Below, piece after piece: positions 16,285 through 42,202 of a stretch of 64,000 nt of DNA (its first letter is position 1; every line of letters starts with the position of its first letter). The notes beneath the pieces were generated by a model, which saw only the letters and a list, made by a program, of their open reading frames with translations, made no database searches and had not been told where the DNA came from. The DNA is from Candidatus Hadarchaeales archaeon (lineage in GTDB: Archaea > Hadarchaeota > Hadarchaeia > Hadarchaeales > Hadarchaeaceae): NCBI GenBank assembly GCA_038851075.1, contig JAWCLG010000003.1, positions 33,820-97,819 of the forward strand, read 5' to 3'. The position numbers were made by a program, and so were the translations under genes.

Positions 16285-16392
16285 AATTCAAGTATTCCAG
16301 CTCATTTTTTCGATATCAAAACTCAGAGATGAAAAACGCATTTAGCGATTCAGCGATTCTGTGCAATCAAATGAGTGGTGCCCGGGTTCAGG

Positions 16393-16492
16393 TGGCGCCC
16401 ATCGGCGGAGCGTTTAACTCCTTGGCCGGGATTTGAACCCGGGGCGGAGCCTCGACAGGGCTCCATGTTGGTCCGGTCTACACCACCAGGGC
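16393..16492 (-). tRNA. tRNA-Asp (anticodon GTC) with a 22-nt intron (16401..16422) in the 3' acceptor strand (position 68/69); CCA encoded
   Basis: Minus-strand fold: GCCCTGG TG GTGT AGACCGGACCA ACAT G GAGCC CTGTCGA GGCTC CGCC CCGGG TTCAAAT CCCGG CCA[AGGAGTTAAACGCTCCGCCGAT]GGGC G CCA. Removing the bracketed segment restores a perfect 7-bp acceptor stem. A BHB core is present (see finding). Confidence 0.8.
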
Positions 16493-16577
16493 ACCGGTTT
16501 GAACTTAAGTATGGGGACTTTAAACCTTTAACGCCGGAAACCACAAATTTTGCTCCAGAATAAATCGACATCTTAGT

Positions 16578-16700
16578 GGTTGGCAGCGTATCGGGCTTCC
16601 CGCCGGCTTGCGCACGGCAGTACAACCTCGATCGCTGGCGGGCTTAACTTCCGGGATCTGACGGGACCGGGTGTCACCCCGCCGCTATGGCCGCCAACCA
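16578..16700 (-). rRNA. rrf: 5S ribosomal RNA (ends +/- 2 nt)
   Basis: The minus strand reads GGTTGGCGGCCATAGCGGCGGGGTGACACCCGGTCCCGTCAGATCCCGGAAGTTAAGCCCGCCAGCGATCGAGGTTGTACTGCCGTGCGCAAGCCGGCGGGAAGCCCGATACGCTGCCAACC. Helix I pairs GGTTGGCGGC with GCTGCCAACC, and the loop C/helix III consensus CCCGGAAGTTAAGCC is present. Confidence 0.9.
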
Positions 16701-16741: not shown

Positions 16742-16859
16742 TGGTCCCGCGGGGGAGATTTGAACTCCCGACATGTCGGTTCCTATCTTTTTTGGGTCTC
16801 TGGCCCGCCTTCCATATGGCGAACAGCCGACCACTCTAACCAGGCTGAGTTACCGCGGG
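16742..16859 (-). tRNA. tRNA-Asn (anticodon GTT) with a ~40-nt intron in the anticodon loop (about 16781..16821); CCA encoded
   Basis: Minus-strand fold: CCCGCGG TA ACTC AGCCTGGTTA GAGT G GTCGG CTGTT[..40 nt..]A(A) CCGAC ATGTC GGGAG TTCAAAT CTCCC CCGCGGG A CCA. The exact splice junction is ambiguous by 1 nt (see finding). Confidence 0.8.
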
Positions 16860-42100: not shown

Positions 42101-42202
42101 TGCGGGGGTAGCCAAGCCAGGTCAACGGCGCCAGTCCCTATGGGCGAAACTCAAGATCTGGTCTCCTAGGAGTTCGGGGGTTCGAATCCCCTCCCCCGCA
42201 CC
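42101..42202 (+). tRNA. tRNA-Leu (anticodon CAA), class II, with a 14-nt intron (42134..42147) in the 5' strand of the anticodon stem (30/31); CCA encoded
   Basis: Fold: GCGGGGG TA GCC AAGCCAGGTCAAC GGC G CCAG[TCCCTATGGGCGAA]A CTCAAGA TCTGG TCTCCTAGGAGTT(C) GGGGG TTCGAAT CCCCT CCCCCGC A CCA. Removing the bracketed 14 nt restores the CCAGA/TCTGG stem. A BHB core was verified by hand. Confidence 0.8.

Follow-up and report, generated by a model that had tools for sequence, protein, structure and literature searches.

How is a functional tRNA-Asp made from a gene whose acceptor stem is interrupted by 22 nucleotides on its 3′ strand? We met this question in a 64,000-nucleotide stretch of DNA, here called the window, from a metagenome-assembled Hadarchaeaceae genome (1.01 Mb in 29 contigs, 52% G+C, 88% complete), in which a tRNA-Asp(GTC) gene on the minus strand runs from G1 at 16492 to A76 at 16393 (Table 1). 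Read without splicing, the gene scores 38 bits and is called by ARAGORN and Rfam only at 16417/16418..16492/16493, with no CCA and, in the ARAGORN drawing, with two acceptor-stem mismatches, G1·A and C4×A. Taking out AGGAGTTAAACGCTCCGCCGAT (16422..16401) leaves a 78-nt tRNA-Asp with seven of seven Watson–Crick acceptor pairs, G73 and CCA, a perfect cloverleaf built from intact exons of which the 3′ one is only 8 nt long. The precursor reads, 5′ to 3′, GCCCUGG UG GUGU AGACCGGACCAA ACAU G GAGCC CUGUCGA GGCUC CGCC CCGGG UUCAAAU CCCGG CCA ↓ AGGAGUUAAACGCUCCGCCGAU ↓ GGGC G CCA (arrows, predicted cuts), and the predicted spliced junction joins ...AAUCCCGGCCA to GGGCGCCA. The splice register is unique, as CCAGGGC arises from no other register. 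A preliminary description of this DNA had proposed that the gene folds into a cloverleaf only without the 22 nt at 16401..16422; these coordinates are exact, with all seven acceptor pairs restored in the spliced product, and the proposed intron position, 68/69, is borne out by the conservation and covariation described below.

Table 1. Features of the tRNA-Asp(GTC) locus, in window coordinates.
Feature	Coordinates	Strand	Basis or remark
Complete pre-tRNA-Asp(GTC) coding region, 100 nt, including encoded CCA	16393..16492	-	ARAGORN, Rfam, sequence
5′ exon, tRNA positions 1-68, 70 nt, D loop with extra nucleotides	16423..16492	-	
Intron AGGAGUUAAACGCUCCGCCGAU, 22 nt, between positions 68 and 69	16401..16422	-	
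3′ exon GGGCGCCA, positions 69-76, G73 and encoded CCA	16393..16400	-	
Helix H, exon strand, C63 G64 G65 C66	16425..16428	-	
Helix H, intron strand, GCCG	16403..16406	-	
5′ bulge C67 A68 ↓ A, predicted cut after A68	16422..16424	-	
3′ bulge A U ↓ G69, predicted cut before G69	16400..16402	-	
Intron hairpin h′, GGAGU / UAAAC loop / GCUCC, 5 bp	16407..16421	-	
Outer helix h, 5′ side, C61 C62	16429..16430	-	pairs with G71 G70 (16398-16399)
Trailer element UGAACCCGGG, complementary to CCCGGGUUCA of the T arm	16381..16390	-	proposed helper helix
CCCGGGUUCA, T-stem 5′ strand and 5′ part of T loop, about positions 48-57	16434..16443	-	trailer partner
TATA-like box TTTAAA, about 30 nt upstream of G1	16519..16524	-	read from sequence

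The gene closes a stable-RNA cluster on the minus strand that consists of an intron-containing tRNA-Asn, 5S rRNA (16698..16578) and then tRNA-Asp, and many further tRNA genes of the source genome are interrupted. The tRNA-Asn gene (16742-16859, minus strand), with an intron of about 40 nt, lies directly upstream of the 5S rRNA gene, and an A/T-rich box stands roughly 25-35 nt upstream of each of the three RNAs in the cluster. Boxes like TTTAAA also precede the tRNA-Asp gene in relatives and, given this together with the box upstream of G1, we infer that TTTAAA is the gene's own promoter.

We searched the precursor with a script for the strict hBHBh′ form of the archaeal bulge-helix-bulge (BHB) motif, defined as a 4-bp helix followed by a 3-nt bulge on each strand and flanking helices of at least 2 bp, and obtained one candidate whose removal gives the full tRNA-Asp. 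The search thereby recovered the central helix CGGC/GCCG and the 3-nt bulges CAA and ATG of the preliminary description. Cleavage two nucleotides into each bulge (CA↓A and AU↓G) had been proposed there as the route to the mature stem; it yields exactly the mature sequence, and the same cut rule applied as a control to the canonical tRNA-Ser(GCT) intron of the same genome gives the loop UUGCUAA and the correct 37/38 splice. The outer helix h comprises only 2 bp (C61-G71 and C62-G70). In the mature tRNA, C63-G65 belong to the 3′ strand of the T stem and the acceptor 3′ strand begins with C66, and formation of H and h requires a melted T stem. Because H and h together use C61-C66, the T-stem 3′ strand and the start of the acceptor strand, the BHB and the T arm are mutually exclusive.

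The same insertion occurs at the same site in other Archaea. BLAST against 40 relatives, including Candidatus Hadarchaeum yellowstonense YNP_45, located it at ten loci, and other relatives carry the uninterrupted tRNA-Asp gene CCCGGCCAGGGCGCC. An open pattern in which the exons are fixed and the insert is free (AATCCCGGCCA N6-36 GGGCGCC) detected an insert in 17 of 66 Hadarchaeota species, all of them Hadarchaeaceae (17/46 species, 7/12 genera), and in none of the 20 other Hadarchaeota genomes; the reversed control pattern had no match in the 66 genomes. Fifteen of the 17 inserts end in GCCGA[AU] and two in GUCGAU, whose GUCG pairs with CGGC through a G·U wobble, so that H is kept in 17/17 under a search pattern that leaves the insert free and does not demand its retention. 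A stricter exon-intron-exon pattern run on one genome per prokaryotic species returned 29 archaeal loci, every one a tRNA-Asp(GTC): 15 in Hadarchaeota, nine in Bathyarchaeia, three in Nitrososphaerales/Nitrosomirales (Nitrososphaeria), one in Candidatus Terraquivivens (Caldarchaeales) and one further archaeal locus. The intron occurs in one to two species of Caldarchaeales, and a sample of 301 Nitrososphaeria contains it in only two genomes, both already known. We rejected seven bacterial matches of the stricter pattern, which lie in G+C-rich DNA without tRNA context, and seven other Nitrososphaeria matches, which lie in coding DNA, as chance.

The intron hairpin h′ supplies the covariation. 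The 26 distinct homologous introns measure 18-32 nt, and in all of them h′ is anchored in the same way, with 3-10 bp that extend from after the third bulge nucleotide to just before GCCG and with sequences as different as GGAGU/GCUCC, GGGG/CCCC, AGGC/GCCU, GGAAUCAU/GUGAUUCC, GGGAAAG/CUUUCCC and AGGAGCGAGU/AUUCGCUCCU. In a MAFFT alignment, double-sided changes occur at five of five h′ pairs (48 observed, 15 in shuffles), and 98% of h′ cells are paired; shifting the 3′ partner by 1-3 columns lowers this to 28-56%. The invariance of H and h is uninformative here because both are constrained by the exons and form part of the cross-phylum search pattern. As a separate observation, the 22-nt intron is identical in the source genome and two others (G004 and G056), which represent three genera and whose anticodon stems differ (GGAGCC/GGCUCC versus GCAGGC/GCCUGC); this implies either slower evolution of the intron than of the exon stem or exchange of the intron between lineages.

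Whether the locus yields a functional tRNA depends on what else the genome encodes. ARAGORN with introns allowed, Rfam and blastn of the spliced sequence found no second tRNA-Asp in the 88%-complete source assembly, and blastn-short found no second copy of the intron in that genome. In four near-complete intron-bearing relatives (G009, G011, G018 and G024, 94-95%) the next-best BLAST matches are all tRNA-Glu. Another intact tRNA-Asp(GTC) gene, which the preliminary description had named as the finding that would count against it, is thus present neither in the assembly nor in the four relatives. As the sole tRNA-Asp gene, the interrupted gene must be functional, and the insertion must therefore be removed. 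We consider it very likely that the locus is the genome's sole tRNA-Asp(GTC) gene and that, with its intron, it is functional and spliced as proposed. The low score of 38 bits and the mismatched acceptor stem reported by standard tRNA finders could also be taken as signs of a decaying pseudogene, or of a transcript that retains the 22 nt, with no functional tRNA-Asp coming from the locus. Such decay is hard to reconcile with intact exons that give a perfect spliced tRNA, with the status of the gene as the only tRNA-Asp gene both here and in the four near-complete relatives checked, and with a BHB that has been kept across phyla with compensatory changes to the insertion.

The splicing enzymes bear on the same point. 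RtcB is encoded in the source genome (PF01139, 602 bits, G000:C8:40403-41710). The 88%-complete source assembly has no PF01974 match and no tblastn match to the EndA of a sister genome, an absence that would suit a pseudogene. In relatives endA adjoins trpS, an essential gene, and trpS is also not found in the source assembly; because trpS is missing too, we read the absence of EndA as an assembly gap, and endA most probably resides in sequence that the assembly lacks. Weighed together with the intact exons and conserved motif, this leaves loss of function at the locus very improbable. Separately, besides the intact RtcB gene on C8, a fragmentary second RtcB match lies outside the window at a contig end (G000:C3:103233-104972). 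Its two pieces cover model positions 1-56 and 49-105, the first interrupted by two stop codons and the second by none; the match may represent a pseudogene, or an intein-split gene truncated where the contig stops.

EndA was detected in 29 of the 30 other Hadarchaeaceae genomes, in open frames of 175-239 aa (most 175-215). Among the 23 related genomes that gave a match, 22 have a single one of 175-190 aa, without tandem fusion of subunits. Three other matches fall far below threshold (about 13 bits, E 0.03-0.07), and a protein search of the related genomes with E up to 5 disclosed no credible second paralogue; since the same query does pick up the Nanoarchaeum equitans beta subunit, a paralogue would probably not have escaped it. 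The exception among the 23 is G001, a genome of the same genus as the source, with two EndA genes that are 89% identical (C49:3322-3858 and C10:17867-18403), a pair that may stem from a genuine gene duplication or from a bin that mixes two strains (3% contamination). Over its full length the sister genome's 179-aa EndA can be aligned with M. jannaschii EndA (1A79; E = 1e-40); no insertion in it exceeds 2 residues, it lacks the one near the His that is seen in the ARMAN-2 enzyme, and the remaining 22 Hadarchaeaceae copies are full-length matches to it. Conserved relative to 1A79 are Y of RVY, H of THS and K of SVRK, which we take to be the catalytic Tyr, His and Lys of M. jannaschii EndA. This collinearity without insertion points to an alpha4 enzyme in Hadarchaeaceae. 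The preliminary description had called for inspection of the EndA architecture: the relatives have a single 179-aa, alpha4-like gene, and none was found in the source assembly itself. Compared with M. jannaschii EndA, an alpha4 homotetramer (PDB 1A79), Hadarchaeal EndA is likewise encoded by one gene per genome and is predicted from its sequence to be alpha4; unlike that entry, the Hadarchaeal lineage also carries relaxed splicing motifs.

We found no need for the earlier suggestion that an intron at this position implies an endonuclease of relaxed specificity. To our knowledge, the strict hBHBh′ form is reported to be cut by every EndA type. Archaeal EndA recognises the BHB at any location, canonical BHBs also occur in pre-rRNA and pre-mRNA (PMC5829648, PMC4090602), and splice sites have been called 'transplantable' (PMC4090602). 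Since archaeal EndA recognises a BHB wherever it is placed and the motif at 68/69 is strict, a relaxed enzyme is not required, and any argument for broad specificity rests on relaxed introns elsewhere, in tRNA-Leu at 30/31 and in the T arm of one tRNA-Asp, rather than on the 68/69 intron. The first of these, in tRNA-Leu(CAA) at 42102-42200 on the plus strand, is a 14-nt intron in the anticodon stem (30/31) with H CGCC/GGCG, bulges AG↓U and AA↓A, a 7-nt loop and no h′, and is missed by the strict search. The second is a further intron of 29 nt after G53 in the T arm of the tRNA-Asp of the sister genome (locus L008, G001:C33), with H CCCG/CGGG, bulges GG↓A and AA↓U, h′ AGGUG/CAUCU and, as read, no outer h, and hence of the HBh′ type; because the source genome lacks it, it represents a recent gain or loss. 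In two further Hadarchaeota metagenome-assembled genomes (L038 and L039), tRNA-Asp has a D-loop insertion of about 30 nt besides the 68/69 intron, for which the strict BHB search was negative.

A further feature, absent from the preliminary description, lies downstream of the gene. The trailer element UGAACCCGGG starts two nucleotides after the CCA and is the exact complement of CCCGGGUUCA in the T arm, allowing a 10-bp helix. We compared the best duplexes between the 15 nt ending at U60 and the 30 nt starting at A76, the last base of CCA. Intron-bearing genes (n = 29, four lineages) have a median dG of -17.2 kcal/mol and intronless genes (n = 10) of about -7.7 kcal/mol (Mann-Whitney p = 2e-5, kinship ignored), and z-scores against shuffled trailers are mostly -3 to -10. 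Where the T arm reads CCUCGGG for CCCCGGG, the trailer places G (wobble) or A (Watson-Crick) opposite the U. In genera g8 and g9 the element is present in the species with the intron and absent from the intronless species, with both flanks syntenic; when these flanks were compared for a swap of intron and trailer as a cassette, about 200 nt of intergenic DNA was found to differ.

The outer helix formed by the trailer and the T arm was also assessed on alignments of the 3′ domain. RNAalifold returned the T arm and h′, without the BHB or the outer helix, an outcome that we ascribe to the invariant T arm and to trailers left out of register by MAFFT. After the trailers were re-aligned with a covariance model, 79% of outer-helix cells are paired and one pair is compensatory (CG 21, UA 4, UG 3); the nearly invariant T arm leaves little room for covariation in this helix. 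Over the complete 21-pair structure 89% of cells are paired, versus 33-51% when slid, and the outer helix appears in the minimum free energy (MFE) structure of six of eight precursors folded with their flanks. In the source precursor, the long hairpin, in which the outer helix is followed by an internal loop, h, the BHB and h′, has a local energy of -29 kcal/mol, and the conformer that combines the strict BHB with the trailer helix is predicted to be less stable than the MFE by 5 kcal/mol at 37 °C and by 3 kcal/mol at 70 °C. On this evidence we think it reasonably probable that the trailer acts as a helper, freeing C61-C66 for the BHB.

A competing reading accepts that the intron is real and cut by EndA and gives the trailer no part in splicing, its complementarity being a by-product of, for example, a terminator or leader-trailer pairing; the substrate would then be a minimal strict BHB with a 2-bp h, or acceptor pairs 1-4:69-72 would close the 3′ splice site. 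The predicted folds lend this reading some weight. In the MFE of the 100-nt precursor, B1, H and h′ form and the 3′ side is closed by G1-C4:G69-C72, and with flanks the MFE structures of the source precursor and of genus g11 (L004, Ca. Hadarchaeum yellowstonense) pair the trailer, CCCGGGCACC in the source and CCAGGGCC in L004, with the leader and the acceptor 5′ strand. The signal is also uneven: in three intron-bearing genes, L015, L047 and L008 (in the last of which the second intron shifts the tested segment), z is close to 0 or dG no stronger than -10 kcal/mol, and in five more, L025, L030, L035, L037 and L054, |z| is < 2.1. A by-product would not be expected to be so strongly enriched in the intron-bearing genes of three phyla, to be absent from intronless genes of the same genera (g8 and g9), or to have its pairing preserved by wobble and compensatory variants, and we regard a trailer without any role as unlikely.

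The trailer of the source genome has a further property. At 16386..16376 on the minus strand it reads CCCGGGCACCA, that is CCCGGGC-A-CCA, a near-copy of the acceptor 3′ strand with discriminator and CCA, which pairs with leader GGU plus G1-G7 (GCCCUGG) with one mismatch and dominates the predicted MFE. In g11, CCAGGGCC occupies the same place as this CCCGGGC-A-CCA. In L016 (G015:C54), whose tRNA-Asp is intronless, GGCGCCA recurs 18 nt past the gene end (CCAGGGCG TCTCAATTTCACAAAAG GCGCCA) perhaps as a relic of an insertion close to the 3′ end or as an alternative to one. The pairing of CCCGGGCACCA with leader GGU and GCCCUGG invites the idea that the tRNA ends at the trailer CCCGGGC-A-CCA (...CCAGGGCGCCA), with a segment longer than 22 nt removed. 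No BHB flanks that longer segment, and the product would have a U5×C68 mismatch and A73, whereas G73 is conserved in all homologues; moreover, only genus g1 has the near-copy, against a wide distribution of the 22-nt intron. We give this alternative 3′ end practically no credence, and the 22-nt intron at 68/69 is the one followed below.

We infer the following splicing pathway, including its sequence of steps, the part played by the trailer, cleavage and ligation. The gene's own TATA-like promoter, which lies downstream of the 5S rRNA gene, would drive synthesis of the precursor. While the T arm and acceptor stem have yet to form, the 3′ portion of this RNA would fold into a long hairpin in which the trailer UGAACCCGGG pairs with CCCGGGUUCA and leaves C61-C66 free. 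These nucleotides would then pair with G70-G71 (h, 2 bp) and with the intron GCCG (H, 4 bp), and the intron would close on itself through h′, GGAGU/GCUCC, so that a strict BHB with bulges CA↓A and AU↓G is displayed. EndA, a 179-aa protein predicted to form an alpha4 homotetramer, would cut after the second nucleotide of each bulge, and RtcB would join A68 to G69, after which the spliced RNA would refold into the cloverleaf and the trailer would be trimmed.

A stronger proposal is that the 68/69 intron and the trailer constitute one conserved cis-acting module, with the trailer obligatory for splicing and the module the same entity in Hadarchaeota, Bathyarchaeia, Nitrososphaeria and Caldarchaeales. 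We hold this to be possible but doubtful. If true, splicing would be forced to occur before T-arm folding and 3′-end maturation, and the module would trace either to an old ancestor followed by many losses or to transfer between phyla that share habitats, which would fit its patchiness: 17/46 species in one family, 0/20 in other Hadarchaeota and 2/301 in Nitrososphaeria. Identical 22-nt introns are, in addition, found in genes that differ in their anticodon stems.

The intron belongs to a known kind. BHB introns at non-canonical positions of archaeal tRNA genes were reportedly described by Marck and Grosjean in 2003 and by Sugahara in 2008. Like the non-canonical BHB introns of Thermoproteales, Thaumarchaeota and others, the tRNA-Asp intron is short and outside 37/38, and its BHB borrows exon nucleotides that are paired elsewhere in the mature tRNA; those introns are removed by EndA and RtcB. 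Unlike them, it sits at 68/69 on the acceptor 3′ strand, leaves a 3′ exon of 8 nt and apparently draws the outer part of its substrate from the 3′ trailer. Non-canonical BHB introns are an established feature of tRNA genes in Crenarchaeota, Thaumarchaeota and Nanoarchaeota (PMC4090602, PMC8450103), and 68/69 is not among the positions listed in one review (20/21 ... 59/60, 3/4; PMC4090602), position notation being poorly searchable in the literature. The preliminary description had placed most such cases outside typical Euryarchaeota, which agrees with the assignment of this genome to Hadarchaeota. Kaneta et al. 2018 report for Hadesarchaea an alpha4-type EndA and a marked rise in disrupted tRNA genes, and assign to the Hadesarchaeal EndA an 'L3' insertion (PMC5829648). 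Their study agrees with our data in lineage, in the presence of multiple non-canonical introns and in a single-gene alpha-type EndA; the L3 insertion is not seen in the sister genome's EndA relative to M. jannaschii, and the study maps counts for one genome (YNP_N21) and, in its accessible text, does not describe a tRNA-Asp 68/69 intron. Resemblances to the proposed trailer helix exist in archaeal pre-rRNA processing stems and in the leader-trailer helices of split and permuted tRNAs, where sequences outside the mature RNA likewise build a long helix that presents the BHB (PMC7714728, PMC3218864). Unlike in those systems, the 3′ flank would act here alone, would pair with the T arm and not with the 5′ flank, and would not be removed by EndA.

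Together, the gene structure, motif and comparative data identify the tRNA-Asp insertion as a real, functional and conserved BHB intron of a known kind in an unusual position. The known mechanism of archaeal tRNA splicing is unchanged by this, and many disrupted tRNA genes of Hadesarchaea were already published; the trailer element and the patchy occurrence of the intron in several phyla may be the two new parts. For annotation, standard tools give a truncated, low-scoring tRNA-Asp, and the corrected model restores the only tRNA-Asp of the genome, a correction that applies equally to at least 29 archaeal species from several phyla. The catalogue of archaeal introns gains a well-supported example in the acceptor stem, from a lineage with an apparently ordinary alpha4 EndA, and the trailer offers a concrete, testable case in which sequence outside the mature tRNA may help to build the splicing motif.
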